A stretch of DNA of 64,000 nt from an uncultured Holophagales bacterium (GTDB lineage Bacteria > Acidobacteriota > Thermoanaerobaculia > Multivoradales > UBA5704). The notes beneath the pieces are model-generated. The model made no database searches, was not told where the DNA came from, and saw only the letters and a list, made by a program, of their open reading frames with translations. Location of the stretch: contig CAWJGT010000001.1 of NCBI GenBank assembly GCA_963842525.1, positions 64,001-128,000 of the forward strand, in the 5' to 3' direction. Below, piece after piece: positions 16,064 through 64,000 of the stretch (position 1 is the first letter of the stretch; every line of letters begins with the position of its first letter). A program made the translations under genes and the position numbers.

Positions 16064-17720
16064 GTATCTGTTTACCGTCAGCGGCACTTTTGGGGAAGGT
16101 TTTCCCTGGACACACGTCCGCGCTGGCCAGGCGACCTGACGAGGGCGAGCGGCTACCGACCTGGAGCCACGGATAACTCGTGGCGAGAACTGTTACGGTG
16201 GCTGTGACGCAGGAAGTATTGCCTCAAGCTTCGGTAGCTGGGGGCTGCGCAGAAGCTGGGGCAAGATCTCGAGTGTCCCGACTTGGTGTTGCTGAAATGT
16301 GCGCAGGGCACTCATCAAGACCGCTTGCGCCTGGGACCCCTCGGCCGTCCGATTTCCCCCAGATGTCTTGCGGTTGATGACCGCCGGGCGAATCCCTTGT
16401 TCGGCCGGCCAATTGGTCGCCTCCACATCCGTGCGTTCCAGGAAGACAAACAGCTGCTCCTGGTGACGTATCAAATGCTGAGCCAGACGCTGGTTGTCGG
16501 GGTTCGTGAACTGCCCCGACAGACGCCTTTCCATCTGGAGCTCCAAGTTCTGCTTGACCTTCTCCAGCGCCTCGCCGCTGAGCTTGCCCGCGTCCCGCTG
16601 ATCTCGCGCCTCCAAGGCGGCCTGCAGGATCTCTTTCACCGCCCGAGGAAAGCGCACCGCACCCCCTGTCGCCTTCTCCAGCAGCTCCTCGCAACGGCGC
16701 AACAGATGCGCCAGACAGGTCTGATGAGTCGCTTCTTCAAATTTCTGATAGGGAGCCCAACCATCAGCCACCAGCACGCCGACAAAGCCCTCCCCCAGGA
16801 CCTCAGAGGCCTCGGCATAGCCACGACCCGGCTGGATGCTGTAGACCGTCTCGCTGCGATTGGTGAACACCCACAACCACACGCTATAGCCCCCCTCCCG
16901 CCAGCCCGTCTCGTCCGGGTACACCACAGGAGAGGCTCCGGATCTTCGCCTTCAGCTCCTCGTACAAGGGCTCCAGCTTCTTACTCATGCGAAGCAGCGC
17001 GCGGCACAGGGCCGAGCGCGACACAGACAGTCCAGCCACTCCTTCAGCAACGCGGCGATCTTGCCGTAGCTCAAGCCTCCGACCTTGTTGAGCCAGGCGG
17101 CGAGCCCCAACACGTTTGGACCGAGTTGCACGTTGCCGACCCGGAACGCCTGGGAAGTCTGGCGCGGGTGACGCCCCACAGCTTCCCGGCCACATGCCGA
17201 GCACTTCCCATAATGGAGGATGAACTCCGTCGTCACCGGCCGAATCGGCGGCAGATCGGTCTGATACTGGCGAGCTTCGCCCTGCGGAATGACCTGACCC
17301 CCACAGTGCTCACAATACAGCGGGCACTCCACCACGATGGTTTCGTCGACGTGATCGGGCACAGCTCGAGTCGCTTGCTGACCATATTGATCCCCGGCTT
17401 TGCGCCCTGGAGACTTGGGATCCTCGCTCGGATCTCCCTTCGAGAAGGGGGCAGCCTGGCGTTTGCCCCGGCGCCGTAGCTCCTCGACAAGTTTCTCCAG
17501 ATCGACGATTCGGCGCTTCAGGTGCGCAATCTGGCGCTCCTGCTCCTCCACCCGCTGGCGAAGCTCACCGTTGTCTTGGCGAAGCTCAGAGTTCTCTTGA
17601 AGGAGTTCCTCGTAAGTCGGCATGCCTGAAAGACATTAGACCATGCCGAGAAGAGAACTTCAAGCCCTTGCGGACGTGCCACCGCTCGGGGAAGGCGGCA
17701 CTAGGGCGGTAAACAGATAC
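16064..17720 (-). mobile_element. IS66-family insertion sequence with single transposase gene
   Basis: 14-bp terminal inverted repeats GTATCTGTTTACCG / CGGTAAACAGATAC; 8-bp target duplication GTCCGGAA at 16056-16063 and 17721-17728. Confidence 0.93.
16193..17623 (-). CDS. IS66-family transposase (two frameshifts)
   Basis: Coiled-coil N-terminus, CxxC zinc motifs, DETGWR, ADGWAPY, HQTCLAHLLR, TNWPAEQGIRPAVINRK. Confidence 0.88.
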
Positions 17721-24259: not shown

Positions 24260-25318
24260 TTACGCTGCTGCCGGCTGGCGGCACAGCTCGTAATCCTCGC
24301 CGCTGATCCAGAGCCGGTGCAGCAGCACCGCCAGTTTCCGGGCCACGGCCACCACCGCTCGCTTCTTGCCGTTTTTGCCTCCACGCCGCGCCAGTTCCAG
24401 TCCGAACCTGCGTAGATCGCTGTCCTGGCCGAAAGGACCGAGGATGTAGTGCGCGGCCTGCACCAGCAGCCAGCGCAACAGCCGGTCGCCCTGCTTGGTG
24501 ATCGGCAACTGCGGCGTCGAGCTGCCCGAGCTTCGACTTGCTGGCACCAATCCCAGGTAGGCCCCCACCGAACGCGAGCGAGCAAAACGATGCGGATCGT
24601 CCAGCGTCAACACGAAGACCAGAGACGTCAGCGCTCCCACTCCCTTGATCTGGCGCAACCGCTGCGTCACGGCAAAACGCTGCGCCCACGCCTCAATGTC
24701 TCGGTCAAAGCCCCCGATCCGCTCACTCAGATCAGCGATCACCGCCAACAGCGGCTCCAGAGAAGCCTTCAGCGTCTGCGGCAAGGCCTGCGACGCACTT
24801 CGGGCGAAGCTTTTCGCCGAGCACCCCGGCAGGCGAAAGCCGAACGACTTCACCATCCCGCGGACCTGGTTGACCAGCATCGTCCGGACCTTGACCAGAC
24901 CCTCCCGGGCGCGCACCACCGCCAAGGCTTGCTGCGCTTCCGGGCTTCGCGCGTGCACCGGACTGAGCAACTCCGGGTCCACTCGGCCCAACTGCGCCAG
25001 GCACCGGGCATCCCGCTCGTCGCTTTTGCGCAGGCTCGATGCGATCGCCCGAACCTTGCTGGGATTGGCGGTGATCACCTGGTGGCCCAAAGATTCCAAC
25101 AACCGCCGCACCCAGGGTGTGTGCGTCCCGCTCTCCAGGATGACCAAACACGGGCTTGCCCCTTCAAAGTAGCGCTGAAAGCTCGCCGAGGTCGTCGACA
25201 GACGCTTCTCTTCCAAGATCGCTCCCGTTTCTCGATCCAGACGACAGATCTGACTCGAACGGTCCCCAAGGTCTACGCCCACCACCGCCTCCACCTCCAC
25301 TCTGATAGCATTCTTCAT
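24260..25318 (-). CDS. IS110 family DEDD recombinase/transposase
   Basis: GVDLG, ILESG, KSDERDA, GAYLGLVPASRSSG, ITKQGDRLLR, AVVAVARKL. Confidence 0.95.
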   Translation of the reverse strand: MKNAIRVEVEAVVGVDLGDRSSQICRLDRETGAILEEKRLSTTSASFQRYFEGASPCLVILESGTHTPWVRRLLESLGHQVITANPSKVRAIASSLRKSDERDARCLAQLGRVDPELLSPVHARSPEAQQALAVVRAREGLVKVRTMLVNQVRGMVKSFGFRLPGCSAKSFARSASQALPQTLKASLEPLLAVIADLSERIGGFDRDIEAWAQRFAVTQRLRQIKGVGALTSLVFVLTLDDPHRFARSRSVGAYLGLVPASRSSGSSTPQLPITKQGDRLLRWLLVQAAHYILGPFGQDSDLRRFGLELARRGGKNGKKRAVVAVARKLAVLLHRLWISGEDYELCRQPAAA

Positions 25319-25420
25319 GGCCACCCTCCTTTCTTGCGCTTTCCAGCGCTTAAATATTCCCAGTTTGCAGGGCCATTTTAAGGCACTGCGCACCGGGAGG
25401 GTGGCCTTCTCATCCCATCT

Positions 25421-33371: not shown

Positions 33372-34115
33372 GTGCGCTACCTGATCCTCTCGGACATGCA
33401 CGCCAACTGGGACGCCTTCGAGGTCGTCCTGCGGCGGGCACGCCGCAAGCGCTTCGACGCGGTGCTGGTCCTCGGGGACCTGGTCGGCTACGGCGCCGCC
33501 CCGAACCAGGTGGTGGAAGCGGTGCGCCGTCTGGGGCCGCGGCTCTTCACCGTGCGCGGCAACCACGACAAGGTGGCGGCGGGGATCGACAACGGCTCCA
33601 ACTTCAACCAGACGGCGCTCACCGCGGCGCAGTGGACCATGGGCCGGCTGACCCCGGCGAACCTGCGCTACGTGCGCAACCTGCCGCAGGGGCCGATGCC
33701 GATCGAGGAGGGGCTGGCCATTTGCCACGGCTCGCCGCTCGATGAGGACCAGTACGTCTTCTCGGACGTGGACGCCTACGAGATCTTCTCCCGCTACGCC
33801 ATGCCACTGGTCTTCTTCGGCCACACGCACATCCCCTCGCTCTTCTCGCTGGAGGGACGGCGGCTGGGAGTGACGGCGCTGCGCGGCGAGAGCGGCATGA
33901 TCACCCTTCACCCCGAGGGCCGCTACCTCATCAACCCCGGCTCGATCGGCCAGCCGCGCGACCGCGACCCGCGGGCCGCCTACATGACCTACGACAGCAG
34001 GCGGCGAGTGGTGCACTGGTACCGCATGCCCTACCCCATCGCCGAAGCCCAGCACCGCATCCGCCGCGCCGGCCTCCCCGGCACCCTGGCCGACCGGCTG
34101 GCCCACGGGGCGTGA
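33372..34115 (+). CDS. Metallophosphoesterase
   Basis: SDMHAN, GDLVGYG, GNHD, HGSP, GHTH, NPGSIGQPRD. Confidence 0.93.
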   Translation: MRYLILSDMHANWDAFEVVLRRARRKRFDAVLVLGDLVGYGAAPNQVVEAVRRLGPRLFTVRGNHDKVAAGIDNGSNFNQTALTAAQWTMGRLTPANLRYVRNLPQGPMPIEEGLAICHGSPLDEDQYVFSDVDAYEIFSRYAMPLVFFGHTHIPSLFSLEGRRLGVTALRGESGMITLHPEGRYLINPGSIGQPRDRDPRAAYMTYDSRRRVVHWYRMPYPIAEAQHRIRRAGLPGTLADRLAHGA

Positions 34116-34316
34116 CCTCACCCCCTGTCCCCCTCTCCCATCGCCCCCCGCCGACCGGGAGAGGGGGGACGTAGCTGGAGCTTGGAGGCGAGGTCGAGGC
34201 TTTCCTGAGAGAGAGTCTCTGAGGAGAAACTGCCAGCTATCCCCTCAGAGCATCAACCACGTTCCCCCTCTCCCGGGGGCAGGGGGGGCGATGGGAGAGG
34301 GGGCTAGGGGGTGAGG
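34116..34316. repeat. Palindromic element CCTCACCCCC...GGGGGTGAGG with nested CCCTCTCCC/GGGAGAGGG hairpins
   Basis: Terminal inverted repeats; second copy at 59897-60062 and partial copy near 14262. Confidence 0.85.
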
Positions 34317-36559
34317 CGATCCCGCACCCGCACCTCCCGCAGACGCTTGATCGTCGACAGGGCGCCGCCGGCGAGGACGATGTAGAGCCCCCACCAGACC
34401 AGGTTGATCAGCGGCTTGCGGGTGACGTCGATGGACAGGCGCGCGGGGTTGGAGATGCCTACGGCCTCGAGCTGGACGGCGCCGCTCGCGGCATTGATGC
34501 CGGCCACGAAGATGGAGCCGCCGTCGGGGAGCTGCATCGGCGGCGTTTCCACCGAGCCGGTCGCCGGGTTCAGACGGTAGAGCGGCGTGAGGGTGGTCTT
34601 CCGGCCGTCGGCCGTCGTCACCTCGACCATGGCTCCGATCGTCATCGGCTCGCCGCGCTGCATCGCAGCCATCGCGTTGGTGCCTCCGGCCATGAGGTCG
34701 AAGCCCGTGAAGCGGAGGTCCATCTTGCCGAGCTGCCCGGACTCGCCTTTGGCGAGCTGGAGCTGCGGCTGCCCGGGATCGAACTCGATCGGCGAGACGT
34801 AGAGGTCCTGGAGGACCGTCGTCCGGATGTCCGGATTGACCATGAGCTGCCGCGTCCGGTCGTTGACGAACATCTTGGGGTAGACGAAGAAGGGCTTTTC
34901 GCCGGCGCGCTGCACCTGGATCTCCATCCGCTCCTTCTCATGCCCCTGGCGCGGCAGGAACCGGGTGAAGGTCAGCGTCATGTCCTTCACCTGCCGCGGC
35001 ACCCCCTGCTCCAGGGTCACCTTGGCGCTCTCGTCATAGGCCGAGGAGGCCATCACGCCGAGCAGGATCACGCCGACTCCGACGTGCGCCAGGTACCCGC
35101 CCGCGGCGGACAGGCCGCCCGCCCGCATCTTGAGCACCGTCTTGTGCAGGTTGGTGGCCAGGGCCAGCGACGCCAGCAGGACGAAAAGGAGGTGGAACGG
35201 GTCGTGGACCTTCCAGACCGCCGCCGCGACCGTGACCGCCACGGCGAAGATCCCCGGGCCGATCAGCTTGCGGAGGATCTCGCCGCCGACCTCCCCCTTC
35301 CAGGTGAGATAGGGCACCAGAGACAGAAGCAGTGCGATCAGCAGCGCGACCGGCAGGTTCACCTGGTTGTAGAACGACGGGCCGACCTGGCCGGGGTTCT
35401 CCATGAAGCGGGTGAGGAGCGGCGCCGAGGTCCCGGCGGTGATGACGATCGTGGCGACCACCAGGGTGATGGTCGAGAGCACCAGGAAGGTGCCGCGCGA
35501 CAGGAACGACGGGTCCTCGTTGGGAACCGTCGGCACATGGCGCCAACGGGTGACGATCAGCCAGCCCGAGAGGACGATGAAGCCGCCGAGCAGCGCGACG
35601 AGCCAGCCCGAGATCCCGAGGTCCACGAAGCTGTGGACCGAGAAGTCGGCGAGCACGCCCGAGCGGGTGAGGAAGGTGCCGTAGAGGACCGCGATGTAGA
35701 CCAGGGACGCGAGCACGTAGTTGGCCCGGCGGTAGCGCCCCCGGGTGCGCTCCAGATACAGGCCGTGCACCAGCACCGTACCGAACAGCCAGGGGATGAG
35801 CGAGGCGTTCTCGACCGGGTCCCAGCCCCAGTAGCCGCCCCAGCCCAGGGTCTTATAGGCCCAGTAGCCGCCCATCAGGATGGCGCAGCCCAGCACCAGG
35901 AAGCCGGCCAGGGCCCAGGGGAAGGCGCGCACCGCCCAGTTGTCCTCTTCGCGCTCATAACCGCGCCGCCAGAGGGAAGCCATGGCGAAGGCGAAGGGGA
36001 TGGCGCTCGCCGCATAGCCGATGAACATGATCGGCGGATGGATGACCATCCAGTTGTCCTGGAGCAGCGGGTTCAGCCCCTGGCCGTCGACCGGCGTCTC
36101 CTTCAGCATGACGAACGGGTTCTCGCGCACCAGGATGAAGAGGAGGCCCAGCAGGGTGAGGGTATAGACCCCCATCACCGGGGCCTCGTTCCTGGCGTTG
36201 CCGGTCGTCTTCATCACCAGGAGCCCGAGCAGGGCGCCCCAGAGGAGCCAGATCAGGAAGCTTCCCTTCTGGCCGGCCCAGAACGCGGCGATCTGGAAGT
36301 GGCCCGGCAGATCGGACCCGGAGTATTGGAAGACGTACTCGATCCGGTAGTCGCGCAGCGCCAGCAGCAGCATCAGGACGAGCGAGGCCAGGAGGATCGA
36401 CACGGCGAAGAAGCCATACGAGCGGCGGGCGAAGGGGAGCGCGGCGGCGTCGCCGCGCAGCACCAGCGAATAGCCCCAGATGGACGCCAGGGAGAAGATC
36501 ACCGCACACCAGAGCGCGAGGGCTCCGGGCAGGTAGAGCTGGGCGAGATAATTCAACAT
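34304..36559 (-). CDS. ccmF: Cytochrome c biogenesis heme lyase CcmF
   Basis: GQGLNPLLQ, IHPP, WGGYWGWDPVENASLIPW, SVHSF. Confidence 0.93.
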   Translation of the reverse strand: MLNYLAQLYLPGALALWCAVIFSLASIWGYSLVLRGDAAALPFARRSYGFFAVSILLASLVLMLLLALRDYRIEYVFQYSGSDLPGHFQIAAFWAGQKGSFLIWLLWGALLGLLVMKTTGNARNEAPVMGVYTLTLLGLLFILVRENPFVMLKETPVDGQGLNPLLQDNWMVIHPPIMFIGYAASAIPFAFAMASLWRRGYEREEDNWAVRAFPWALAGFLVLGCAILMGGYWAYKTLGWGGYWGWDPVENASLIPWLFGTVLVHGLYLERTRGRYRRANYVLASLVYIAVLYGTFLTRSGVLADFSVHSFVDLGISGWLVALLGGFIVLSGWLIVTRWRHVPTVPNEDPSFLSRGTFLVLSTITLVVATIVITAGTSAPLLTRFMENPGQVGPSFYNQVNLPVALLIALLLSLVPYLTWKGEVGGEILRKLIGPGIFAVAVTVAAAVWKVHDPFHLLFVLLASLALATNLHKTVLKMRAGGLSAAGGYLAHVGVGVILLGVMASSAYDESAKVTLEQGVPRQVKDMTLTFTRFLPRQGHEKERMEIQVQRAGEKPFFVYPKMFVNDRTRQLMVNPDIRTTVLQDLYVSPIEFDPGQPQLQLAKGESGQLGKMDLRFTGFDLMAGGTNAMAAMQRGEPMTIGAMVEVTTADGRKTTLTPLYRLNPATGSVETPPMQLPDGGSIFVAGINAASGAVQLEAVGISNPARLSIDVTRKPLINLVWWGLYIVLAGGALSTIKRLREVRVRDRLTP

Positions 36560-52491: not shown

Positions 52492-52779
52492 TCACCACCC
52501 GCCATTTGGATCCATTCCCACTCCTGCTTCCGCCGAACTCGGCCTAGCCGCCCCCATTGCATTCCCTCCGCCGTCGTCTCCGGGGATGAGCGGAACGCCT
52601 TGGACCGTAGCCAGGGCCGAGTCGAACAGAAACACCATCCAACCCCATGCCTCGGCCAGCGGGCTTGGGGAGCCCATGACCGGCCCATGCTGCGGCAGCG
52701 GACTTGCAAACACCGCTCCGGAGCCCACCAGCAAGGCCAATAGCGCCACCCCCACTCGCAGCTTCATTCCACGAAACAT
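52492..52779 (-). CDS. Small secreted peptide precursor ending GVGMDPNGGW
   Basis: GAGGGGGAG RBS; signal peptide MFRGMKLRVGVALLALLVGSGAVFA; 95 aa. Confidence 0.75.
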   Translation of the reverse strand: MFRGMKLRVGVALLALLVGSGAVFASPLPQHGPVMGSPSPLAEAWGWMVFLFDSALATVQGVPLIPGDDGGGNAMGAARPSSAEAGVGMDPNGGW

Positions 52780-53163
52780 ACGATTCTCCCCCTCGGAAGT
52801 TACAGGCCCATCATGGGCCGCCGGCTGCACACTGTACTGCTCTACAACCTAGAGTGCACGCCAACGGTGAAAAGGAGCCGCCTACAGAGAACTTCCTTGT
52901 CCCACGATCCCAGGGGCCCGACTTCTCTCGACTCACAACTCTTGATCGGCCTCTAGAATACCACACGTCTCCTCGCGCAACGTCAATCCCTCAAAGACCT
53001 CAAGCCGCCGGGCCCGCCCGGACCCACCGCTCCAGCGACCGGGACCGCGAAACGCGGCCCGGCTTGGCGGTCCGTGTCACCGCGTCGCGTGGTCCCTGCC
53101 ATGCGGACCGCGGTCGCTGTCGCCGGGACCGCAGATCCAGTGAGCCATCTGAGAGGCCCCGGC

Positions 53164-53209
53164 TTGACAACATCGGACGTCCCGCTTACTGTACCGCATG
53201 TATAACACA
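53164..53209 (+). promoter_or_regulatory. Sigma70 promoter and YtrA-type operator
   Basis: TTGACA (53164) - 17 bp - TACTGT (53187); imperfect palindrome TGTACCGCATGTATAACACA at 53190-53209. Confidence 0.7.
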
Positions 53210-53211
53210 CC

Positions 53212-53607
53212 GTGATGATCCTGCGCATCGAGCCCGCCGACCCCCGCCCGATCTGGAGGCAGATCGAGGAGGGGGTGCAGAACCTGGTGGCGAGCGGCGC
53301 GCTCCCCGCCGGTACCGCCGTCCCGTCGGTGCGCGACCTTGCGCGGGACCTCCAGGTGAACCCGGCCACGGTGTCGAAGGCCTATCAGCGGCTCACCGAT
53401 GCCGGGGTGCTCGCCGTGCGTCGGGGCGAGGGGACGTTCGTCTCCGCCACCCCACCCTCCCTGCCGATGGAGACCCGCCGGCAGAAGCTGCACCACGGCG
53501 CCGTGCGTTACGCCAGCCTGGGGATCACTCTGGGGGTCAGCCGCGAGGAGGCGATCGAGAGCCTTGCGGAGGTCTGGCGGAGCCTGGTCGATGGAGGAGA
53601 GGAATGA
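53212..53607 (+). CDS. GntR family (YtrA subfamily) regulator
   Basis: PIWRQI, PSVRDLARDLQVNPATVSKAY, RRGEGTFV. Confidence 0.92.
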   Translation: MMILRIEPADPRPIWRQIEEGVQNLVASGALPAGTAVPSVRDLARDLQVNPATVSKAYQRLTDAGVLAVRRGEGTFVSATPPSLPMETRRQKLHHGAVRYASLGITLGVSREEAIESLAEVWRSLVDGGEE

Positions 53608-54486
53608 GCCTGATTCGGGTCGAAGCCCTGACCGTCCGCTACGGCCGCCGCCGCGCACTCGACGGCGTGTCGTTCGAGGTGCCTGAAGGATCGGTCTACG
53701 CCCTGCTGGGCCGCAACGGAGCGGGCAAGTCGTCGCTCGTGCGCTGCCTCCTCGGCACGCAACGCGCCGCAGCGGGCCGCGCAGTGCTCTTCGACCGGGA
53801 CGTCTGGCGGGCGCGCGCCGCGGTCCTCGCGGAGGTCGGCGTGGTCCCTGAGGAGCCGGACGCGCCGCAGACCATGTCCGCGCTCCAGCTTTCCCGTTTT
53901 TGTGCCCGCCTCTACCCGCGCTGGGACGAGGCCGGCCTGCGCGCACGGCTGGAGCGGTTCCGGGTCCCCGCGGACCTGGCCTTCGGCCGGCTTTCGAAGG
54001 GGCAGAAGGCCCAGGTGTCTCTCGCCCTTGCCCTCGCCCCCACGCCGCGCCTCCTGATCCTGGACGACCCGACGCTGGGGCTCGACCCGGTGGCGCGGCG
54101 GTCGGTCTTCGACGAGCTGATCGGCGAGCTGGCCGACCGCGGAACCACGGTCTTCCTCACCAGCCACGACCTGGCGGGGGTCGAAGGGATCGCCGACCGG
54201 GCCGGTATCCTGCAGGACGGGCGCCTGCTGGTCGACGAGGAGGTCGAGAGCCTCAAGCAGAGGTTCCGCCGCATCAGCCTCCCGGGCGCGGCGGAGGCTC
54301 CGGAAGCTCGCGGAGCTGGCACCCCTCGCAGTCGCTGTCCGCGGCTGGGGGGTGGAAGCCGTGGTCGGCGGTTGGGACGAGGATCGGTCCACGGACCTGC
54401 TGTACGGCCCCGGGGACCGCGCCGAGGTCTCGGCCCTGACGCTCGAGGAGATCTTCCTCGCCCTGGTGGAAGGAGACCGCCGGTGA
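53604..54486 (+). CDS. ABC transporter ATP-binding protein (frameshift near 54305)
   Basis: GRNGAGKS, LSKGQ, ILDDPT, SH; TLEEIFLAL tail in shifted frame. Confidence 0.88.
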
Positions 54487-56417
54487 GAGGTTTCGTTGCC
54501 GTCGTCCGTCGTGAGATCGCCGAATACCGTCTCCTCTTCCCCGCTGCCTTCCTGATCGGGCTGGTCGCCCTGGCGACGCCCTGGCTGCCCGGTACTCGCG
54601 GCCACGCCCCTGCTGATCTCCGCGGCGCTGCCGCGTTCTCCCTTGCTGCCATCGTCACCCTCGTCCTTTCCGTGGTGCTGGGGTCTTCGGTCTTCGCGCG
54701 CGATCTGGCAGAGAGACGGCTGGGTTTCTATTTCGCGCGTCCCCTGCCGGGATGGGCCCTATGGGCCGGCAAGCTGGTCGCCGCCGTGATCCTCGCTCTC
54801 GCCGCCGGAATCCTGGTGCTCGTGCCCTCGGTTGCCGCCGGCGGGCACATGGACCTGGGTGGTTCCTGGTGGCTCGGCGGCCTGCTGCCGGGGGATGTCG
54901 GGGAGCTGGTCCCCTTCCTGATCCTCGGAGTGCTCTCGCTCCTGCTCGCCGCGCACACCTTGAGCACCATGGTCCGCGCGCGGTCCCCCTGGCTCCTGCT
55001 CGACCTCCTGGCCGCCCTCGCCGTGGCCGCCGCCTTCCAGGCCTGCCGGGGAAGCCTGTTGAGCGAGGGCGCGGTCGAGGCGTTCAACCGGGGCGCTACC
55101 CTTTTCTTCCTGGCCATTTTTTTCTCTGCGCTGCTGGCCAGCGCGGTCCAGGTGATCCGTGGGCGGACGGACCTCCGCCGTGGGCACCGCCTGCTCTCCC
55201 TCACGCTCTGGGGATGCCTGGGGATCGCCAGCGCGGCTTTTGCGGGCTATGCCGGCTGGGTCCTCCGTGTCGAGCCCGAAGACCTGACCCAGCTCGATCG
55301 CATCGTTCCGGCCCCGGCCGGTACCTGGATCGGACTGGCGGGAGGGACCTCAGGCCGCGGGAGGCTCTACCGGCCGGCGTTCCTCTTCGACGCGGCATCG
55401 GGCCGGTTCCTCCGTATCCGGAACGCGGGCTACGACTACTACTGGTGGCACCAGCCTTTCTTTTCGGCCGACGGGCGGCGGGCGGTCTGGCTGGACCACC
55501 ACACCCACGCCGTGCAGAGCCTGGACCTCGCCCGGCCCGGGGCCGAGCCGGTCAGCCTGCCGGTCGTCTATCCGGACTTGCCGCGGTACATCGTCATGTC
55601 CCCCGGCGGGACCCGGATCGCCGCTCTCCGCGACGATCGGCTGACTGTCGACGATCTGTCGGCGGGGCGGCTCCTTGCCTCGGTGCCGACGAGGTTCGAC
55701 TACGGCGACCGGGCCGTCTTCGTGGACGAACAGCGGCTCCGGATCTACCGGACCTCCCGCGACCCCGCGTCGGCCCTGAGCGGGCGCCGGCATCTCGAGA
55801 TCCTGGAGCTCGACGTCGACGCCCGCCGCCTCCGCACGCTCGGTCGGCTGGCGTACGGCGGCGGGCTCTGGTCCATGAGCCCCGATGGGGAGCACATCCT
55901 CCTGCGGGAGAACCACAAAGAGGCCCGGCTGGTCGACGTGGGCACCGGCAGGACCCTCACCTCGATCGCAGCGGAACCGTTGCTGGTCGCCGAGGATTTC
56001 CTCGCCGACGGCAGGATCGTCCTGGTCAGCCGGGATCCGTCACGGCAGCGGACGACTTTGACGGTGCTGGACCGGGACGGTACCGAGCGCAGCCGCGCTG
56101 TCTTCGCGGCGAGCCGCCTCCTCCTCGGCGGGCAGCCTCTGCCCGGGTCGCTGGTGGTGGCCACGAGCCGCGTGCGTGGGAGCTACACCTCCCAGCGCTG
56201 GACCTCCTGGCTGGTTGACCTCGCGACGGGCCGCGTGCGGACGCTCGGCCAGGGTCTGGTGCCGGTGACCGTTCGCCCTATCGGCCCCCAGAGCATCGCC
56301 TCGCGGCTGTTCGCCACGGGGCATGGTGGCCTCGTCCTCCTCGACCCGGTCACCGGCCGCCGGCGGACCGTACTGGAACCAGGCTCTCCTGACCTCGGTT
56401 CTCCTGACACCCCCTGA
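54483..56417 (+). CDS. ABC permease-like membrane protein with C-terminal beta-propeller
   Basis: RLGFYFARPL, several TM helices, SxDG/SPGG propeller-like repeats. Confidence 0.75.
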   Translation: MRGFVAVVRREIAEYRLLFPAAFLIGLVALATPWLPGTRGHAPADLRGAAAFSLAAIVTLVLSVVLGSSVFARDLAERRLGFYFARPLPGWALWAGKLVAAVILALAAGILVLVPSVAAGGHMDLGGSWWLGGLLPGDVGELVPFLILGVLSLLLAAHTLSTMVRARSPWLLLDLLAALAVAAAFQACRGSLLSEGAVEAFNRGATLFFLAIFFSALLASAVQVIRGRTDLRRGHRLLSLTLWGCLGIASAAFAGYAGWVLRVEPEDLTQLDRIVPAPAGTWIGLAGGTSGRGRLYRPAFLFDAASGRFLRIRNAGYDYYWWHQPFFSADGRRAVWLDHHTHAVQSLDLARPGAEPVSLPVVYPDLPRYIVMSPGGTRIAALRDDRLTVDDLSAGRLLASVPTRFDYGDRAVFVDEQRLRIYRTSRDPASALSGRRHLEILELDVDARRLRTLGRLAYGGGLWSMSPDGEHILLRENHKEARLVDVGTGRTLTSIAAEPLLVAEDFLADGRIVLVSRDPSRQRTTLTVLDRDGTERSRAVFAASRLLLGGQPLPGSLVVATSRVRGSYTSQRWTSWLVDLATGRVRTLGQGLVPVTVRPIGPQSIASRLFATGHGGLVLLDPVTGRRRTVLEPGSPDLGSPDTP

Positions 56418-57090: not shown

Positions 57091-57549
57091 ATGCCAGCCG
57101 ACACGGAGAACCGGGACAAGCGCCACCAGGAGATCCTCGAGATCCTCCGGGAGACGCGCGTGGCCAGCCAGGGAGAGCTGGTGGAAATGCTGCACGCACG
57201 CGGGTTCTCGTGCACGCAGTCGAGCGTCAGCCGCGACCTGCGGGACCTGGGCATCGCCCGCATCGCCGGACGCTACGTGGTCCCGGCGCGAAATGACGAC
57301 GCCGACCTGGGTTTCCGCGAAATCATGCACTTTGTGCGCGGCTGCAAGCCCGCCGGGACCAACCTGACCGTCGTCTTCACCTCCGTGGGCGCCGCGCAGT
57401 CGGTCGCCCTCGCCATCGACCGGGCCGCTTGGTCCGAGGTCGTGGGCACCATGGCCGGCGACGACACCATCTTCGTCGCCACGGGCAGCGCCCACGACCA
57501 GCAGCGGTTCATCCAGCGCCTCGATCTTTTCCGGCACGAAGAAAGGTGA
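57091..57549 (+). CDS. argR: Arginine repressor
   Basis: SQGELV, TQSSVSRDL, GTMAGDDTIF. Confidence 0.95.
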   Translation: MPADTENRDKRHQEILEILRETRVASQGELVEMLHARGFSCTQSSVSRDLRDLGIARIAGRYVVPARNDDADLGFREIMHFVRGCKPAGTNLTVVFTSVGAAQSVALAIDRAAWSEVVGTMAGDDTIFVATGSAHDQQRFIQRLDLFRHEER

Positions 57550-57553
57550 CGCC

Positions 57554-58804
57554 ATGTCCGATCCGATCGTGCTCGCCTTCTCCGGCGGGCTGGACACCTC
57601 TTTCTGCATCCCCTTCCTCGCCGAGACGACCGGCCGGCCCGTGGTCACGGTGACGGTGGATACGGGCGGCCTGGACGCCGCCGCCGCGGCCGACCTGGCG
57701 GCGCGCTCGCGCGCCCTCGGGGCCGTGGACCACCTCCTGGTGGACGGCCGGGCCGCCTTCTTCGACCGGGTGCTCCGGTTCCTGGTCATGGGCAACGTCC
57801 GCCGCGGCCAGGTCTATCCGCTGTGCGTCGGCGCGGAGCGGGTGATCCAGGCGCAGGAGGTGGCGAAGGCCGCCGCCCGCCTCGGCACCCGCACGGTCGC
57901 CCACGGCTGCACGGCCGCGGGCAACGACCAGGTCCGTTTCGAGGTTGCCCTGCGCACGCTCGACCCGGGGCTGGAGGTCCTGGCGCCGGTGCGCGACCGG
58001 CCGCTGCCGCGCGCCGAGGAGGTCGCCTTCCTGGAGGCGCGCGGTCTGCCCGTGCCCTCCTTCGGCGCCGCCTATTCGATCAACCGCGGCCTCTGGGGGG
58101 TGACGATCGGCGGGCGCGAGACCCTGGACACGGTCGAGTCGATCCCCGAGACGGCCTGGGTGCTCACCCGGGACGCCTTCGACCGGCCGCTGCCGCCGGC
58201 GCGCCACACGGTCGGTTTCACCGCGGGGGTGCCGTCGTCCCTGGACGGCGAGGAGCTGGCGCCGGTTGTGCTCATCGAGAAAGCGGAGGCGCTCGCGGCG
58301 CCCTACGGCATCGGCCGCGGCATCCACCTGGGCGAGACCATCCTCGGCATCAAGGGCCGGGTGGCCTTCGAGGCGCCGGCCGCCGAGGTGCTCGTCACCG
58401 CGCACCGCGAGCTCGAAAAGCTGACGCTGACCGGCCGGCAGATCCGGGTCAAGGAGACGGTCGCGGCCGTCTACGGTGACCTGGTCCACGAGGGGCAGCA
58501 CCTGGACCCGGTCTGCCGCGACATCGAAGCGCTTCTCCTCAGCTCGCAGGAGCGGGTGACCGGCGAGGTCCATCTCCTCTTCCGGCCGGGGCAGGTCTTC
58601 GTCGAGGGAGTGCGCTCGCCGTTCTCCCTGGTCGCGGCCACGCGCGGCGTCTACGGCGAGGCGGCCGGCGAGTGGACGGCCGAGGACGCCCGCGGCTTTT
58701 CGCGGATCGCCGCCCTGCCCGGGATGCTGCACGCCCGGATGGATCAGGGCGGACCCGGCGGGTCGGGCAAGAACCAGCCCGTTCCTATCGAGGCGGAGGC
58801 CTGA
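57554..58804 (+). CDS. argG: Argininosuccinate synthase
   Basis: LAFSGGLDTS, HGCTAAGNDQVRF, GIKGRVAFEAPAA. Confidence 0.95.
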   Translation: MSDPIVLAFSGGLDTSFCIPFLAETTGRPVVTVTVDTGGLDAAAAADLAARSRALGAVDHLLVDGRAAFFDRVLRFLVMGNVRRGQVYPLCVGAERVIQAQEVAKAAARLGTRTVAHGCTAAGNDQVRFEVALRTLDPGLEVLAPVRDRPLPRAEEVAFLEARGLPVPSFGAAYSINRGLWGVTIGGRETLDTVESIPETAWVLTRDAFDRPLPPARHTVGFTAGVPSSLDGEELAPVVLIEKAEALAAPYGIGRGIHLGETILGIKGRVAFEAPAAEVLVTAHRELEKLTLTGRQIRVKETVAAVYGDLVHEGQHLDPVCRDIEALLLSSQERVTGEVHLLFRPGQVFVEGVRSPFSLVAATRGVYGEAAGEWTAEDARGFSRIAALPGMLHARMDQGGPGGSGKNQPVPIEAEA

Positions 58805-58805
58805 G

Positions 58806-59894
58806 ATGAAGACGATCGTCCTGGACAAGATCGCCTCGGTCACCCGTTCCTGCCAGCTCAAGCGGGAGGTGCGAGTGAGCTCCCAGATCCCCTGCGAGGA
58901 GGGGGTGGTGGTCGCGGTGCGCGTGCTCAACGACAAGAGCACCTATAACCAGCTCGAGCTGCCCAGCGGGCGGATGGCCCAGGTCAAGCGCGGAGACATC
59001 GTCGCCGGAGCCCTCGGGCACCGGCACGCCCTGTTCGGCTACGCCGGTCATCTGCCGGAGCGGCTGGCCCCGGGCGACCGCATCCAGCTTCTGAACATGG
59101 GCGGGGTGCTGGGGGTCTTTGATGGCGGCAGCCCGGACCTCGGCCTGCCCTTCGAGTGCGAGGTGCTCGGGGCCATCCTGACCTTTCCCTACCTGGGAGA
59201 GCGGATCGGCGTGGCCGCCCGGATCGGCGATGTCGGCGGCGTACCCCTCGACCCGGCGGCGCCTCTCACCTCGGGCGGCGTGCCGGTGATCGCTCTCGTC
59301 GGCTCCTGCATGAACTGCGGCAAGACCGCCGCGGCCTGCGCCCTGGTCCGCGAGCTGAGCCACGCCGGCCTGACGGTCGACGGCTTCAAGGCCACCGGCG
59401 TGTCGCTGCGCCGCGACGTGCTGGCCATGGAGGACGCCGGGGCGCGCAAGACGGCCCTGTTCACCGACCTCGGCGTGGTCGCGACGAGCGACGCCAACGC
59501 CCCGGCGGTGACCCGGACGCTGCTGACCCGTCTCGCCGCGGGCCGGCCGGACGCCCTCGTGGCCGAGCTCGGCGACGGCCTGCTCGGCGCCTACGGCGTA
59601 GCCGCCATCCTGGACGACCCGGAGATCCGCGCCGCCTTCACCGCCGTGGTGCTCGCGGCCAACGATCCGGTCGCAGCCTGGGGCGGGGTGCGCATCCTGC
59701 GCGAGAGGTTCGGTATCGAGCCGGTAGCGGTGACCGGCCCGGCCACGGACAATCTGGCGGGGACGCGGATCCTGGAGGAGCAGCTCGGGATTCCGGCGAT
59801 CAATGCGCGGACGGACGCTCCACGGCTGGCGGAGCTGGTGCGGGCGCGCCTGGGAGTCGGGATCGACCGGATTGGGGTGGAGGTGGTGGCGTGA
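58806..59894 (+). CDS. DUF1611/DgcN-like P-loop protein embedded in the arg operon
   Basis: GSCMNCGKT, KATGV...DAGA, FTDLG, AELGDGLLG; tightly coupled to argG and argC. Confidence 0.7.
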   Translation: MKTIVLDKIASVTRSCQLKREVRVSSQIPCEEGVVVAVRVLNDKSTYNQLELPSGRMAQVKRGDIVAGALGHRHALFGYAGHLPERLAPGDRIQLLNMGGVLGVFDGGSPDLGLPFECEVLGAILTFPYLGERIGVAARIGDVGGVPLDPAAPLTSGGVPVIALVGSCMNCGKTAAACALVRELSHAGLTVDGFKATGVSLRRDVLAMEDAGARKTALFTDLGVVATSDANAPAVTRTLLTRLAAGRPDALVAELGDGLLGAYGVAAILDDPEIRAAFTAVVLAANDPVAAWGGVRILRERFGIEPVAVTGPATDNLAGTRILEEQLGIPAINARTDAPRLAELVRARLGVGIDRIGVEVVA

Positions 59895-61117
59895 GGCCTC
59901 ACCCCCTGTCCCCCTCTCCCATCTCCCACCCGCCCTATCCCCGGGAGAGGGGGGACGTTGCTCAGGCGATTCCGGCGAGCCCGGGCTCAGGAGCTCCGCA
60001 TACGTCCCCCCTCTCCCGGCGGGGGGTGGAAGGGAGATGGGAGAGGGGGACAGGGGGTGAGGTCTCCGCCCTTATCCTCGGCGGCTCCGGCTATGTGGCA
60101 GGCGAGCTGCTGCGGCTGCTGGCCGGCCATCCGGTGCTGCGCCCGGTCGCCGTGGTGTCGGAGAGCCAGGCGGGGGAGATGGTGGAATCCGCCTTTCCTC
60201 ATCTCGCCGGCTGCTTTCCAGGGCTGGCGTTCTCCCGTCGGGAAGATCTCGCTGGTGTCTTCGAATCGCTCGCGGGCGAGACAGCAGCCATCTTCTGCGC
60301 GGCTCCCCATGGCGCGGCGGCGGCGCTGCTCGATGGCGTGCTCGCCGAGGCGGAGGGGGCCGGGGTGGAGGCCCGGGCGGTCGACCTGTCGGCCGATTTC
60401 CGGTTCGGGTCGGCGGAGGCTTATACGGCGGTCTATGGCCATCCGCATGGCGCGCCGGAGCGCCTGGCCTCATTCTCCTGCGCGGTGCCCGAGCATGCAG
60501 CGGAGGTTTCGACCCCTCATGTGGGCCACCCGGGGTGCTTCACCACCTCGGTGCTGATGGCGACGGTCCCCTTGCTGCGGCTGGGCCTGGTGGAGCCGCG
60601 GGTCTCGGCCGTGGCGGTGACCGGCAGCACCGGCGCGGGGCGCACGCCGACCGCCACGACCCACCACCCGGCGCGGCGGAGCAACCTTTTTGCGTACAAC
60701 CCGTTGAAGCACCGGCACGGGCCGGAGATGCGGGCGCTCGCGGCGGCTGCTTCGGGGGTGGAGGCGGAGATCTGGTTCGTTCCGCAGGCCGGACCGTTCG
60801 CCCGCGGTATCTATGCCACGGTGCAGGCGCGGCTGGCGGAGCCCCGGTCCGCGGCGGAGGTCCGGGAAGCGCTGGCCTCTTTCTATAAGGATGCGCCGTT
60901 CGTCGATGTCCTGGCCGAGCCGCCGCGCCTCCAGGACGTAGTGGGGACCAACCGCTGCCGCCTGAGCGTCGCGGTGGACGGCGATCATCTGGTCGTCTTC
61001 TCGACGATCGACAACCTGGTCAAGGGAGCCGCCGGGGGCGGCATCCAGTGGATGAACCGGCTCCTCGGGCTGCCCGAGACCGCCGGTCTGACTCAGCCCG
61101 GGCCGGGCTGGCTGTGA
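59891..61117 (+). CDS. argC: N-acyl-gamma-glutamyl-phosphate reductase
   Basis: GGSGYVAGELLRLL, DLSADFR, PGCFTT, DNLVKGAAG; start uncertain (GTG 59891 or GTG 60026). Confidence 0.92.
   Translation: MRPHPLSPSPISHPPYPRERGDVAQAIPASPGSGAPHTSPLSRRGVEGRWERGTGGEVSALILGGSGYVAGELLRLLAGHPVLRPVAVVSESQAGEMVESAFPHLAGCFPGLAFSRREDLAGVFESLAGETAAIFCAAPHGAAAALLDGVLAEAEGAGVEARAVDLSADFRFGSAEAYTAVYGHPHGAPERLASFSCAVPEHAAEVSTPHVGHPGCFTTSVLMATVPLLRLGLVEPRVSAVAVTGSTGAGRTPTATTHHPARRSNLFAYNPLKHRHGPEMRALAAAASGVEAEIWFVPQAGPFARGIYATVQARLAEPRSAAEVREALASFYKDAPFVDVLAEPPRLQDVVGTNRCRLSVAVDGDHLVVFSTIDNLVKGAAGGGIQWMNRLLGLPETAGLTQPGPGWL
59897..60062. repeat. Second copy of the CCTCACCCCC palindromic element, at the argC 5' end
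   Basis: CCTCACCCCCTGTCCCCCTCTCCCATCTCCC...GGGAGATGGGAGAGGGGGACAGGGGGTGAGG. Confidence 0.88.
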
Positions 61118-61130
61118 GGAGGGGAGAACG

Positions 61131-62319
61131 ATGATGATGGTGGTTTCCGCCGAGAGCGCGCTCGACCCGACCGCCGAAGAGCGGCGCTGGCTGCTGCCGG
61201 TCTATCCGCATGCGCCTTTCGAGCCGGTGAGCGGCGAGGGCGCGCTCCTCCGCACCCGGGACGGCCGGGAGCTGATCGACTTCTATGGCGGCCACGCCGT
61301 GGCCCTGCTGGGCTACGGCCACCCGCGTCTCCTGGCAGCCCTCGCCGAGCAGGCGAAGACTCTCTTCTTCCAGAGCAACGTGGTGCCGCTGGAGGTGCGC
61401 GCCCGTGCCGGGCGGCGGCTCGTCGAGTGGGGACCCGAAGGCCTCTCCCGCGCTTTCCTGGTCAACAGCGGCGCCGAGGCCAATGAGAACGCCCTGCGCC
61501 TCGCCTTCCGGCGCACCGGCCGGCGGCGGGTCGTCGCCATCGAAGGCGCCTTCCATGGCCGGACCGCCGCGGCGGGTGCCCTCACCTGGGGCTCGAAGCG
61601 CTGGTACGGCTTCCCGCAGGCGCCGTTCGACGTGACCTTCGTGCCGCGGGGCGACCTGGACGCTCTCGAGCAGGCCCTCATCGCCGATCGCGGGGCCGCG
61701 GCCCTGATCGTCGAGCCGGTCCAGGGACAGGCGGGGGCCTACGCGCTCGGCGCCGAGTACCTGCAGGCCGCCCGCAAGTTGACCTGGCGGGCCGGCGCCG
61801 TGCTCATCTTCGACGAGGTCCAGTGCGGCATGGGCCGGACCGGTCAGCCCTTTGCGGCCCAGGCGTACGGCGTCACGCCCGATCTCTTGACGACGGCCAA
61901 GGGGCTCGCCGGCGGCTTCCCGGCCGGCGCCGTCCTGGTGACCGACGAGCTGGCGGCGGGGCTTGGCGACGGCGACCTGGGGACGACCTTCGGCGGCGGC
62001 CCCCTGGCCTGCGCCCTGATCGAGGCGGTGATCGGCGCCATCGAGGACGAGGGGCTCCTGCCGCACGTGCGGCGGCTCTCCGCCCGCATCCGCGAGACCT
62101 GCTGCGTGGGGCCGGTGACCGACATCCAGGGCGAGGGCTTCCTCCTCGGCCTGCGCACCGCGCGGCCGGCGAAGGAAATCCACGCCGAGCTGATCGACAA
62201 GGGGATCTTCACCGGCACGAGCGGCGATCCCCACATCGTGCGTCTCCTGCCGCCGCTGGTCCTCGCAGAGAGTCCACGTCGACGCCCTGGCCGCGGCCCT
62301 CCGGGAGATCCGGCCATGA
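61131..62319 (+). CDS. argD: Acetyl/succinylornithine aminotransferase (frameshift near 62270)
   Basis: NSGAEANE, FHGRT, DEVQCGMGRTG, AKGLAGG, GTTFGG, RLLPPL. Confidence 0.92.
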
Positions 62320-63324
62320 AGCGCTTCGTGACCCTGGCGGAGCTCAGCCGCGGCGAGGTGATCGAATTGCTGGCCCTCGCCGACCGGCTCGAGCGGCGGC
62401 CGGATTCGGACGCCCTGGCGGGCAAGGTCCTGGCCCTCCTCTTCTTCAACCCGTCGCTGCGCACCCTCGCCTCGTTCCAGGCCGGGATGGCGCGGCTGGG
62501 CGGCAGCTCGTTCGTCATCTCGCCCGGGCAGGGGAGCTGGCAGCTCGAGACCCGGACCGGCGTGGTCATGGACGGCGCCGCGGCCGAGCACGTCCGCGAG
62601 GCCATCCCCGTCCTCGCCGGCTATGGCGACGCGCTCGGCATCCGCTCCTTTGCCGGCGGGACCGACCTCGCGGCCGACCTGGCCGACGAGACCTTCGCCG
62701 CCATGGCCGCGGTCTGCCCGGTGCCGGTGATCAACCTGGAATCGGCGATCGACCATCCCTGCCAGGCGCTCGCCGACTGGCGGACTATGGACGAGCTGAA
62801 CATCCCCACCGAGAGCGGCCGGTTCGTCCTCTCCTGGGCCTGGCACCCGAAGGCGCTCCCCCTGGCCGTGCCCGCCGCGGCCGTCCACATGGCAGCCCTG
62901 CGCGGGATGGACGTGACCGTGCTCCGGCCCGAGGGGTTCGGCCTGCCGGAGCCGGTGATGGAGCGGGCGCGCCAGGCCGCGGAGCTTTCCGGAGGCTCGG
63001 TCCGCGAGTCCGCCGACCGCCGCTGAGGCCATGCAGGGGGCGCACGTTGTCTATGCCAAGTCGTGGACGGCGCCGGCCCACTACGGCGATCCGCAGGCCG
63101 AGGCAGCGCTGCGGGCCGGCCTGCGGGACTGGTGCGTCGGCGAGGACTGGTTCGCCCCGGCCGCACCCGGCTGCCGGTTCATGCACTGCCTGCCGGTGCG
63201 GCGCAACGTGGTGGTCCGCGACGAGGTGCTCGACGGACCGCGCAGCGTGGTGATCCGGGAGGCCCACAACCGGATGTGGGTCCAGATGGCGGTCCTCCAT
63301 CGGCTTTTGCGAGGTGAATCATGA
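62316..63324 (+). CDS. argF: N-acylornithine carbamoyltransferase (ArgF' type; frameshift near 63020)
   Basis: FFNPSLRT, HPCQALAD, WAWHPKALP, HCLPVRRN. Confidence 0.9.
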
Positions 63325-64000
63325 AAGACGTCGGCCAGCGGACCGCCGAGATGGCGGCTCTGAAGCATGCGACCCCCTACATCCGCCTGTTCAAGGGGAA
63401 GACCTTCGTGGTCAAGGTCGGCGGCGAGGCGGTGGAGACCGAGGCCGCGATCCGCGGACTCCTGGAACAGGTGCACACCCTCCACCAGGTCGGCATCCGC
63501 GTGGTCCTGGTGCACGGCGGCGGCACGGAGTCGACCCGCCTGGCCCGCGCCCTCGGGGCCGAGCCGCGCTTCGTCGAAGGCCGGCGGGTGACCGACGAAG
63601 CGGCCCTCCAGGTAGCGGCCATGGTCTTGAACGGCGCGGTCAACACCCGCATCCTGGCGGTCTCCCGTGCCCTCGGCCTGCCGGCCCTGGGCATCTCCGG
63701 GATCGACGCCGGCCTGATCCAGGCGCGCCGCCGGCCGCCGGTGCAGGTGAACGGCGCCACGGTCGACTACGGCTTCGTCGGCGACGTCGTCTCCGTCTCC
63801 CCGGGGGTGGTCACGACCCTGCTCGACGCCGGCATGGTGCCGGTGGTGAGCCCGCTCTGCGCGGACGACGCCGGCACCGTCCTCAACATCAATGCGGACA
63901 CGATCGCCTCGGCCCTCGCCGTCGGCCTGCGGGCCGAGAAGCTGATCCTGATGACCGGCGCGCCGGGCATCCTCGAACGGCCGGGCGATCCGGGCACGCT
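63321..64000 (+). CDS. argB: N-acylglutamate kinase, truncated by window end
   Basis: PYIRLFKGKTFVVKVGG, VHGGG, GRRVTD, NINADT. Confidence 0.93.
   Translation, partial: MKDVGQRTAEMAALKHATPYIRLFKGKTFVVKVGGEAVETEAAIRGLLEQVHTLHQVGIRVVLVHGGGTESTRLARALGAEPRFVEGRRVTDEAALQVAAMVLNGAVNTRILAVSRALGLPALGISGIDAGLIQARRRPPVQVNGATVDYGFVGDVVSVSPGVVTTLLDAGMVPVVSPLCADDAGTVLNINADTIASALAVGLRAEKLILMTGAPGILERPGDPGT

Follow-up and report, generated by a model that had tools for sequence, protein, structure and literature searches.

A P-loop protein in the arginine operon of an uncultured Holophagales bacterium is a candidate N-succinyl-L-glutamate synthase

The α-amine of glutamate is protected at the start of arginine biosynthesis by ArgA, by ArgJ, by a bifunctional N-acetylglutamate synthase/kinase (NAGS/K) or by the LysW/ArgX route (PMC4490483). 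In the same review from 2015 the gene for glutamate succinylation was still given as unidentified. For the Bacteroidetes, this step was assigned by GapMind 2020 to the GNAT protein BT3761, a homolog of Cabys_1732, whose neighbours BT3760 and BT3758 are arginine-biosynthesis genes (PMC7311316). A bioRxiv preprint ('Novel enzymes for amino acid biosynthesis in diverse bacteria and archaea: GapMind 2026', 10.1101/2024.10.14.618325) predicts that the family of Steroidobacter ACG33_RS14135 is an alternative N-succinylglutamate synthase. According to this preprint, minimal medium supports the growth of Steroidobacter denitrificans, but neither ArgA nor any other N-acylglutamate synthase can be recognised in it, and ArgE is likewise missing. 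ACG33_RS14135 is described there as a hypothetical protein in an arg cluster with weak Foldseek similarity to 7XRJ. Its homologs are 'virtually always' found in arg operons, 90% of 70 ArgF' proteins neighbouring these homologs carry A, P, S or V at position 92, and functional orthologs of ACG33_RS14135 and of Pseudomonas aeruginosa ArgA never co-occur in one genome. Here, we analyzed a stretch of 64,000 nucleotides from an uncultured Holophagales bacterium (assembly GCA_963842525.1, contig CAWJGT010000001.1, positions 64,001 to 128,000 of the forward strand; hereafter the window), in which a gene, termed X, is located between argG and argC of an arginine operon. The role proposed for X is already in print as a prediction, and is therefore supported here rather than newly put forward; X is probably an Acidobacteriota member of the predicted family.

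Like ACG33_RS14135, X is a hypothetical protein in an arginine cluster with a remote fold similarity to the D-glutamate N-acetyltransferase DgcN (7XRJ) and with a neighbouring ArgF' that has A or S at position 92. It differs in that it comes from Thermoanaerobaculia-like Acidobacteriota and in that the operon of its close relatives also holds an M20 deacylase gene. With BT3761, X shares the proposed reaction, the pathway and arginine-biosynthesis neighbours; the folds, however, are unrelated and X has no GNAT domain, and X would thus be a case of non-orthologous displacement. X would protect the glutamate α-amine at the start of the pathway as ArgA, ArgJ, NAGS/K and LysW/ArgX do, but none of their domains is present in X, and the ArgB encoded beside it is of monofunctional length.

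Elimination of the other steps of the pathway, together with the residue signature of ArgF', makes it likely that X produces N-succinyl-L-glutamate, by whatever mechanism. The full statement, that X is a succinyl-CoA (coenzyme A):L-glutamate N-succinyltransferase on a BioD/DUF1611-type P-loop domain, is more tentative and stands somewhat short of an even chance. X would put a succinyl group on the α-amino group of L-glutamate, with succinyl-CoA as the donor. CoA would be held by the P-loop through its nucleotide-diphosphate part, with the conserved all-beta N-domain of X helping to bind glutamate. DgcN uses acetyl-CoA, and this precedent favours an acyl-CoA donor, here succinyl-CoA. The product would then be converted to citrulline by ArgB, ArgC, ArgD, ArgF' (as a succinylornithine carbamoyltransferase) and the M20 desuccinylase, and citrulline to arginine by ArgG and ArgH.

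The glutamate-succinylating enzyme has long been the missing piece of succinyl-type arginine synthesis, and the X family would be a second, unrelated solution beside the GNAT protein of the Bacteroidetes. Its members occur in Acidobacteriota from soil and sediment, in Steroidobacteraceae and Chromatiales and in some Planctomycetota. These groups are abundant and for the most part uncultured, and once the family is correctly named, an apparent arginine auxotrophy disappears from their genome-based metabolic models.

The genomic context of X was compared across related loci. A scan of one genome per GTDB species, with 10 closer X sequences as query, gave at least 593 relatives, and the best 80 were analyzed. 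These 80 loci hold near-orthologs (52-83% identity) and are uninformative on the context of the more distant two-thirds of the X family. They comprise 23 loci of the Acidobacteriota/Thermoanaerobaculia type, 3 from Planctomycetota and the rest from Gammaproteobacteria/Pseudomonadota (Steroidobacteraceae, Chromatiales and others). Orthologs from gammaproteobacterial and Planctomycetota metagenome-assembled genomes (MAGs) have 57-68% identity to X, with ∼63-68% for those from Steroidobacteraceae, and the gene order is shared. In 79 of the 80 loci argC directly follows X; the contig of locus L026 ends 11 nt past X. The argG gene is directly upstream of X in 70 loci and absent from 9 despite upstream DNA, and 1 locus starts inside X. 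Minimal clusters consisting of X-argC-argB were found in seven loci (L043, L044, L061, L064, L066, L069 and L071), and these tie X to the first three steps of the pathway.

ArgB is 306-330 aa long in 66 of 68 loci (it is cut in L042, and L063 gave a split match read as 519 aa). This monofunctional length indicates that no acetyltransferase or synthase domain is fused to the kinase. Each locus contains a single argB-like match, in L063 in two adjoining pieces, so that no classical ArgA with a kinase-like domain is located nearby. Downstream of argB, 21 open reading frames (ORFs) from 15 loci were scanned. A gene of the ArgE/DapE-family (M20) is located directly 3' of argB in L001, L002, L003, L015, L020 and L050, and argH then follows it in 4 of these 6 loci, namely those in which the next ORF was scanned. 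In L025, L031, L040 and L060 argH comes directly after argB, and in L007, L009, L012, L022 and L041 it is found ∼1 kb beyond argB. Thus, argH is present in 13/13 loci where the relevant ORF was scanned. The Acidobacteriota operon is argR-argG-X-argC-argD-argF'-argB-argE-argH. It holds every enzyme from N-acylglutamate to arginine, and therefore only step 1 is left for X.

The flanks of 12 loci were scanned for a competing synthase (92 ORFs of 110-520 aa from heuristic ORF calls, up to 7 kb away from the cluster). None of these 92 ORFs contained an ArgJ domain. The sequence-only reading of this DNA had assigned X to the N-acylglutamate step with a non-GNAT fold. Neither a GNAT nor an ArgJ domain was detected within 7 kb in 10/10 full-operon loci scanned, and the assignment is supported by the synteny, the length of ArgB, the presence of argE and argH and these GNAT- and ArgJ-free flanks.

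In the window, the + strand from 57091 to 64000 carries argR-argG-X-argC-argD-argF'-argB, as judged from the ORF list, Pfam and NCBIfam, which bears out the gene order read from the letters alone. The features are as follows.

57091-57549, + strand: argR, encoding the arginine repressor, at the head of the cluster (E 1e-16 to 1e-17 for Pfam Arg_repressor and Arg_repressor_C; TIGR01529).
57554-58804, + strand: argG, argininosuccinate synthase (Pfam PF00764 and PF20979; TIGR00032, 273.9 bits, above cut-off).
58806-59894, + strand: X, predicted non-GNAT N-succinyl-L-glutamate synthase, 362 aa (ORF, homologs, synteny, AlphaFold2 model, Foldseek).
59301-59327, + strand: Walker A motif/P-loop GSCMNCGKT, X residues 166-174 (conservation in 52 homologs; aligned to the BioD P-loop).
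59386-59388, + strand: codon of X Lys195 (invariant column; profile alignment to Mycobacterium tuberculosis BioD chains).
59890-60070, no strand: palindromic hairpin element of 175 nt in the X-argC spacer, outside X (inverted repeat, RNA minimum free energy).
60026-61117, + strand: argC, start uncertain, GTG 60026 or GTG 59891 (TIGR01850, 282.8 bits, above cut-off).
61131-62319, + strand: argD, N-acylornithine aminotransferase (Pfam Aminotran_3).
62316-63324, + strand: argF', N-acylornithine carbamoyltransferase with the succinylornithine-type residues A, P and V (NF003384 on both pieces).
63321-64000, + strand: argB, N-acylglutamate kinase, cut by the window end (TIGR00761, 179.5 bits).

The stop codon of argG (TGA, 58802-58804) is followed by one base and then by the ATG of X at 58806, in agreement with the distance of 1 nt noted before, and a GGAGG is located 7-11 nt upstream of this ATG. 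No argA, argJ or GNAT domain was found in the 42 upstream window ORFs scanned or in the arg ORFs, so that the visible DNA indeed lacks argA and argJ.

The acyl group was addressed via the neighbouring carbamoyltransferase. Acetylornithine carbamoyltransferases (AOTCases) are characterised by Glu92, Asn185 and Lys302 (Xanthomonas campestris numbering), succinylornithine carbamoyltransferases by A, S, P, V or Q at 92, P at 185 and V, I or E at 302 (PMC4581275). Such residues are also taken as succinyl-specific by GapMind 2020 (PMC7311316). The positions of ArgF' were read from alignments to X. campestris AOTCase chains, which carry a 20-residue tag, and were counted by hand. The ArgF' of the window has Ala 92, Pro 185 and Val 302 and hence the succinylornithine-type signature. 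Of the 63 ArgF' proteins compared (the window and 62 loci), 60 have A and 3 have S at position 92, and all 62 that are readable at position 185 have P; at position 302, 32 have V, 28 have A and 2 have S, 1 being unreadable. The acetyl-type residues are absent (Glu92 0/63, Asn185 0/62, Lys302 0/62). X shows two features described for the ACG33_RS14135 family, a location inside an arginine biosynthesis cluster and a neighbouring ArgF' with A, P, S or V at position 92 (Ala in the window; A or S in 63/63). This residue signature suggests that the acyl group of the X-operon pathway is probably succinyl. The sequence-only reading had left the product as N-acetyl- or N-succinylglutamate; of the two, succinyl is favoured by the ArgF' signature and acetyl disfavoured.

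X itself is a real, highly conserved gene, far beyond what is expected by chance. At E ≤ 1e-3, 6661 of 8000 scored candidates match X, and the matching representative clusters (50% identity) number 1465 at E ≤ 1e-3, 882 at E ≤ 1e-10 and 197 at E ≤ 1e-30. The best matches come from Thermoanaerobaculia MAGs, and every named one is labelled 'hypothetical protein'. The GC content by codon position (0.75/0.50/0.92) is like that of the neighbouring genes. M1, D7, K8 and S11 do not vary among 27 orthologous N-termini, indicating that the annotated start is correct. Sequence conservation was analyzed in an alignment of 52 full-length homologs with 29-63% identity to X. Invariant residues are G33, P84, G172, K173, K195, G198, G212, G223 and G311; S11, E51, R73, T174, D204, D221, D249, E254, G256, G258, Y263 and D287, among others, are conserved in at least 90%. 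The P-loop GSCMNCGKT noticed at first sight was therefore confirmed at residues 166-174, with G172 and K173 invariant and T174 conserved in at least 90% of the homologs.

Twelve longer X-containing proteins with argG, argC or argD domains were considered as Rosetta-stone fusions and treated as read-through artefacts; all are single-member clusters, and P0138 is visibly frameshifted. Another protein, P0200, is known from one metagenome sequence and has 626 aa; its X-like domain (residues 4-307) appears to run on without a break into an amino-acid-kinase domain (363-597), a layout that would mimic the kinase plus acyltransferase of classical ArgA. As a single occurrence it carries no weight.

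Domain searches placed X in no described family. X has no Pfam match at cut-off (best MobB, E 0.0044) and no NCBIfam assignment, with two weak matches only (cobyric acid synthase and mobB). It contains no amino-acid-kinase, GNAT, ArgJ or ATP-grasp domain according to Pfam and NCBIfam, and no Acetyltransf_* family was matched by X or is among the six Pfam families matched by the 52 homologs. For DUF1611_C (PF07755, gathering score 25 bits), X gave no match at E ≤ 0.01, and 10 of the 52 homologs gave weak matches (best E 1.3e-5); the scores inspected were 16.5-22.6 bits over 40-60 residues round the P-loop. Other weak Pfam matches among the homologs were to MobB (20), CbiA (19) and AAA_26 (3). 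NCBIfam matches were to mobB (37), CobB (15), bioD (TIGR00347, weak; 13) and CobQ (11), and a DgcN model was absent among the 25 most frequent of the 69 NCBIfam families matched. In a language-model atlas, X adjoins clusters auto-named 'putative DUF1611 domain-containing protein', and PF07755 is present on 11% of the proteins in one of these clusters. Hence, the DUF1611 motifs seen by the sequence-only reading correspond to a real but remote resemblance round the P-loop, and X itself remains below the Pfam cut-off for DUF1611. A literature search gave no paper pairing DUF1611 with arginine.

Searches of the PDB with X and with the 52-sequence profile (HMMER) matched BioD, MobB and FtsY over the P-loop and the next strand, and no DUF1611 or DgcN chain. 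Only BioD chains were matched significantly, at the P-loop and the Lys that comes after it (E 8.9e-5 for the profile); in the profile alignment to M. tuberculosis BioD chains, the invariant K195 aligns with the conserved BioD Lys after strand 2. The AlphaFold2 model of X (pLDDT, predicted local distance difference test, 94.9; pTM, predicted template modelling score, 0.91) consists of an all-beta N-domain (∼1-130), a less confident linker and an alpha/beta P-loop C-domain (∼160-350). Foldseek found 139 PDB matches to X at E ≤ 0.001, all on the C-domain, with a query template modelling (TM) score of 0.33-0.40. Rank 1 was dethiobiotin synthetase 3of5 (E 1.2e-5), and 1dbs, 1dae and 1dts were matched as well. 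After 3of5, the neighbours were HypB and FtsY/Ffh; the DUF1611 protein 2obn was found at rank 12 (E 5.2e-5; 229 aligned columns, TM 0.42 on target) and DgcN 7xrj at rank 49 (E 2.1e-4, TM 0.35, C-domain alone). The N-domain modelled alone (pLDDT 81.6) gave no PDB match at E ≤ 0.001. X therefore has the features of a BioD-type SIMIBI P-loop NTPase: the P-loop, the invariant K195 and a Walker-B-like E254-L-G-D-G. The N-domain of DUF1611 is Rossmann-like, and such a domain was not found in X, whose residues 1-130 are all-beta and without a Pfam match. As X has no PF07755 match and is no closer in fold to DgcN than to dethiobiotin synthetase, 'DUF1611/DgcN-like' proved too strong a label.

X and DgcN have in common a BioD-type P-loop C-domain and, as proposed, the glutamate α-amine as substrate. 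X would differ from DgcN in acting on L- rather than D-glutamate, in using succinyl rather than acetyl and in being biosynthetic rather than catabolic, and its all-beta N-domain has no PDB counterpart. BioD, the best fold match, likewise has a GxxxxxGKT loop and a Lys after strand 2; it is shorter (∼220-250 aa), lacks the N-terminal beta domain of X and belongs to an unrelated pathway context. Sequence similarity between the two extends over ∼50 residues, and identity in the fold alignment is 13-18%.

Several observations weigh against X as the glutamate succinyltransferase. Both minimal-cluster loci scanned (L043 and L071) hold two GNAT genes each, 1.2-2.5 kb past argB, and a small GNAT synthase may be encoded elsewhere in the genome, beyond the 64 kb window. 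Of the 62 ArgF' proteins readable at position 302, 30 have A or S there, outside the published V/I/E set; these residues occur in gammaproteobacterial loci. X misses the Pfam cut-off for DUF1611, and it matched no DgcN model in NCBIfam. In fold, X is no more distant from ATP-using dethiobiotin synthetase, HypB and FtsY/Ffh than from DgcN; the analogy to DgcN is thus weak and does not fix the donor. The conserved Walker A Lys/Thr, Glu-x-Gly-Asp-Gly and Lys195 suit nucleoside triphosphate chemistry at least as well as CoA. Furthermore, ACG33_RS14135 itself was absent from the 80 loci and from the best 120 matches of the Steroidobacteraceae ortholog in L049, and we infer its link to X through Steroidobacteraceae MAG orthologs that are 63-68% identical to X and located in the same operon. 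The preprint, for its part, lists the N-succinylglutamate synthase role as a prediction (10.1101/2024.10.14.618325).

The GNAT pairs of the two Steroidobacteraceae-type loci (L043 14322-15559, L071 14652-15997) each consist of an FR47/Acetyltransf_1 and an Acetyltransf_3 gene, with DoxX and VIT1 genes on the argB side and a LysE-type exporter gene on the other.

Among the alternatives, the one that fares best is that X is an ATP/GTP-dependent ligase acting via succinyl phosphate (succinate + L-glutamate + ATP → N-succinyl-L-glutamate + ADP + Pi), although we regard it as rather unlikely. C-N bond formation via an acyl phosphate is a habit of the BioD branch of P-loop enzymes. Phosphorylation of an oxygen is the activating step in BioD, CobQ, CTP synthase, PurA and FTHFS alike, which would favour a ligase. 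The dethiobiotin synthetases at the top of the fold matches (3of5), the BioD chains as the only significant sequence matches, the weak TIGR00347 bioD, CobB and CobQ matches of 13, 15 and 11 homologs, and the conservation of K173, K195, T174, D249 and E254 all point in this direction. However, DgcN, the sole characterised glutamate-acylating enzyme on this fold, is named an N-acetyltransferase in the title of 7xrj, its reaction being listed as EC 2.3.1.312 (PMC11747546), and all known small-acyl first steps of the pathway described in PMC4490483 use acyl-CoA or transacetylation. The conserved P-loop residues could also be inherited and serve the binding of the CoA phosphates. An ATP-dependent ligase is not discussed in Appendix 2 or in the passages on this family in the preprint (10.1101/2024.10.14.618325). 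If true, it would be a new reaction opening arginine biosynthesis and a new activity in the BioD/DUF1611 superfamily; in either case the identity of the donor (CoA thioester or ATP) would define the capabilities of this P-loop superfamily.

It is still less probable that X is an accessory NTPase, that is a SIMIBI-type chaperone, scaffold or regulator of ArgC/ArgB, while an unlinked small GNAT protein carries out step 1. Among the fold neighbours are HypB, FtsY/Ffh, FleN and FlhF, NTPases with regulatory or chaperone roles; the weak Pfam matches of the homologs go most often to MobB (20 of 52), GNAT genes occur near the minimal clusters L043 and L071, and short GNAT synthases are hard to recognise. 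Against such a role stand the tight X-argC(-argB) linkage in an operon with every catalytic step but the first and the conserved Arg73, Glu51 and Ser11 of the N-domain, which resemble a substrate pocket more than a switch. The preprint, moreover, reports S. denitrificans to be without an N-acylglutamate synthase of a characterised type and finds no co-occurrence with ArgA (10.1101/2024.10.14.618325).

A product N-acetyl-L-glutamate, feeding a Xanthomonas-type acetylornithine carbamoyltransferase route, seems very unlikely. DgcN is an acetyltransferase, the best NCBIfam name of the window ArgF' is N-acetylornithine carbamoyltransferase, and the N-terminal part of this protein is closer to X. 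campestris AOTCase (163.7 bits) than to the Bacteroides fragilis succinyl enzyme (113.2 bits), the C-terminal piece being closest to the latter. Yet among the AOTCase chains, which differ from one another at position 92 only, the chain bearing Ala there scores highest and is also the best PDB match of the window ArgF', and acetyl-type residues are entirely absent from the ArgF' proteins (Glu92 0/63, Asn185 0/62, Lys302 0/62). The residue rule of PMC4581275, GapMind 2020 and the preprint 10.1101/2024.10.14.618325 all take the residues found here as succinyl-specific.

In the gammaproteobacterial loci L025, L031, L040 and L060, argB runs straight into argH with no M20 deacylase gene between them, so that the desuccinylase there may be unlinked. 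That X replaces the N-acylcitrulline deacylase (ArgE) in such clusters would suit these four loci and the lack of ArgE in S. denitrificans, but it is highly improbable, because X and an ArgE/DapE-family M20 gene share the operon in 6/6 such loci scanned, the P-loop fold is to our knowledge no amidohydrolase scaffold, and step 1 would remain unfilled.

At the 3' end of X, the stop codon (TGA, 59892-59894) overlaps a GTG (59891-59893) that is in frame with argC. This overlap, noted by the sequence-only reading, is literally present, but the GTG is probably not the start of argC. The TIGR01850 match begins ∼57-60 codons into the argC reading from GTG 59891, and the spacer of ∼170 nt ahead of it is a near-perfect 175-nt hairpin with 43-nt inverted-repeat arms that are 91% complementary (minimum free energy -160.5 kcal/mol, z -13.5). 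The late family match and the hairpin in between make the in-frame GTG 60026 the more likely start, as judged from these sequence features, and X and argC are probably not translationally coupled in the window. A second hairpin copy with a longer loop is located at 34105-34325 between two convergent genes, and an 18-nt core of the hairpin occurs 4 times versus 0.02 expected; this GC-rich palindromic element looks like a repetitive extragenic palindromic (REP) element or a miniature inverted-repeat transposable element (MITE). The X-argC spacer is also enlarged in the related loci L007, L008, L010 and L033.

Two apparent frameshifts were noticed further downstream by comparison with the intact relatives L001-L006 and L015. 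A 1-base insertion near 62274-62277 (frame change shown against L002) puts the last 14 codons of argD out of frame, so that the argD ORF continues in frame into argF'. A further 1-base insertion near 63021-63024 breaks argF' into two ORF pieces (62316-63026 and 63031-63324). These frameshifts could be an assembly error or a real decay of the operon.

Distant homologs of X with 24-28% identity were found on plasmids of Priestia megaterium (NZ_CP085446; L082 5899-6960) and Bacillus paranthracis (NZ_CP116206; L083 5866-6894). A PDB search by sequence with the B. paranthracis homolog, labelled 'DUF1611', gave nothing meaningful. Both genes neighbour a phosphoenolpyruvate mutase-family gene, one or more genes for thiamine diphosphate-dependent enzymes, ATP-grasp ligases and an ornithine/aspartate carbamoyltransferase homolog, and the Priestia cluster additionally contains an M20 peptidase. 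These clusters look like phosphonate natural-product clusters in which an X-like gene is again paired with a transcarbamylase, and by analogy the distant relatives may carry out comparable N-acylations.

Upstream of the arginine operon, residues 319-457 of a single 1237-aa ORF (52704-56417) form an ABC-transporter ATPase domain. The opening ∼300 residues of this ORF resemble an out-of-frame, low-complexity translation, and the true start is therefore probably internal. The window further contains transposase genes of the IS66 family (two ORFs, 16193-17623) and the IS110 family (24260-25393).

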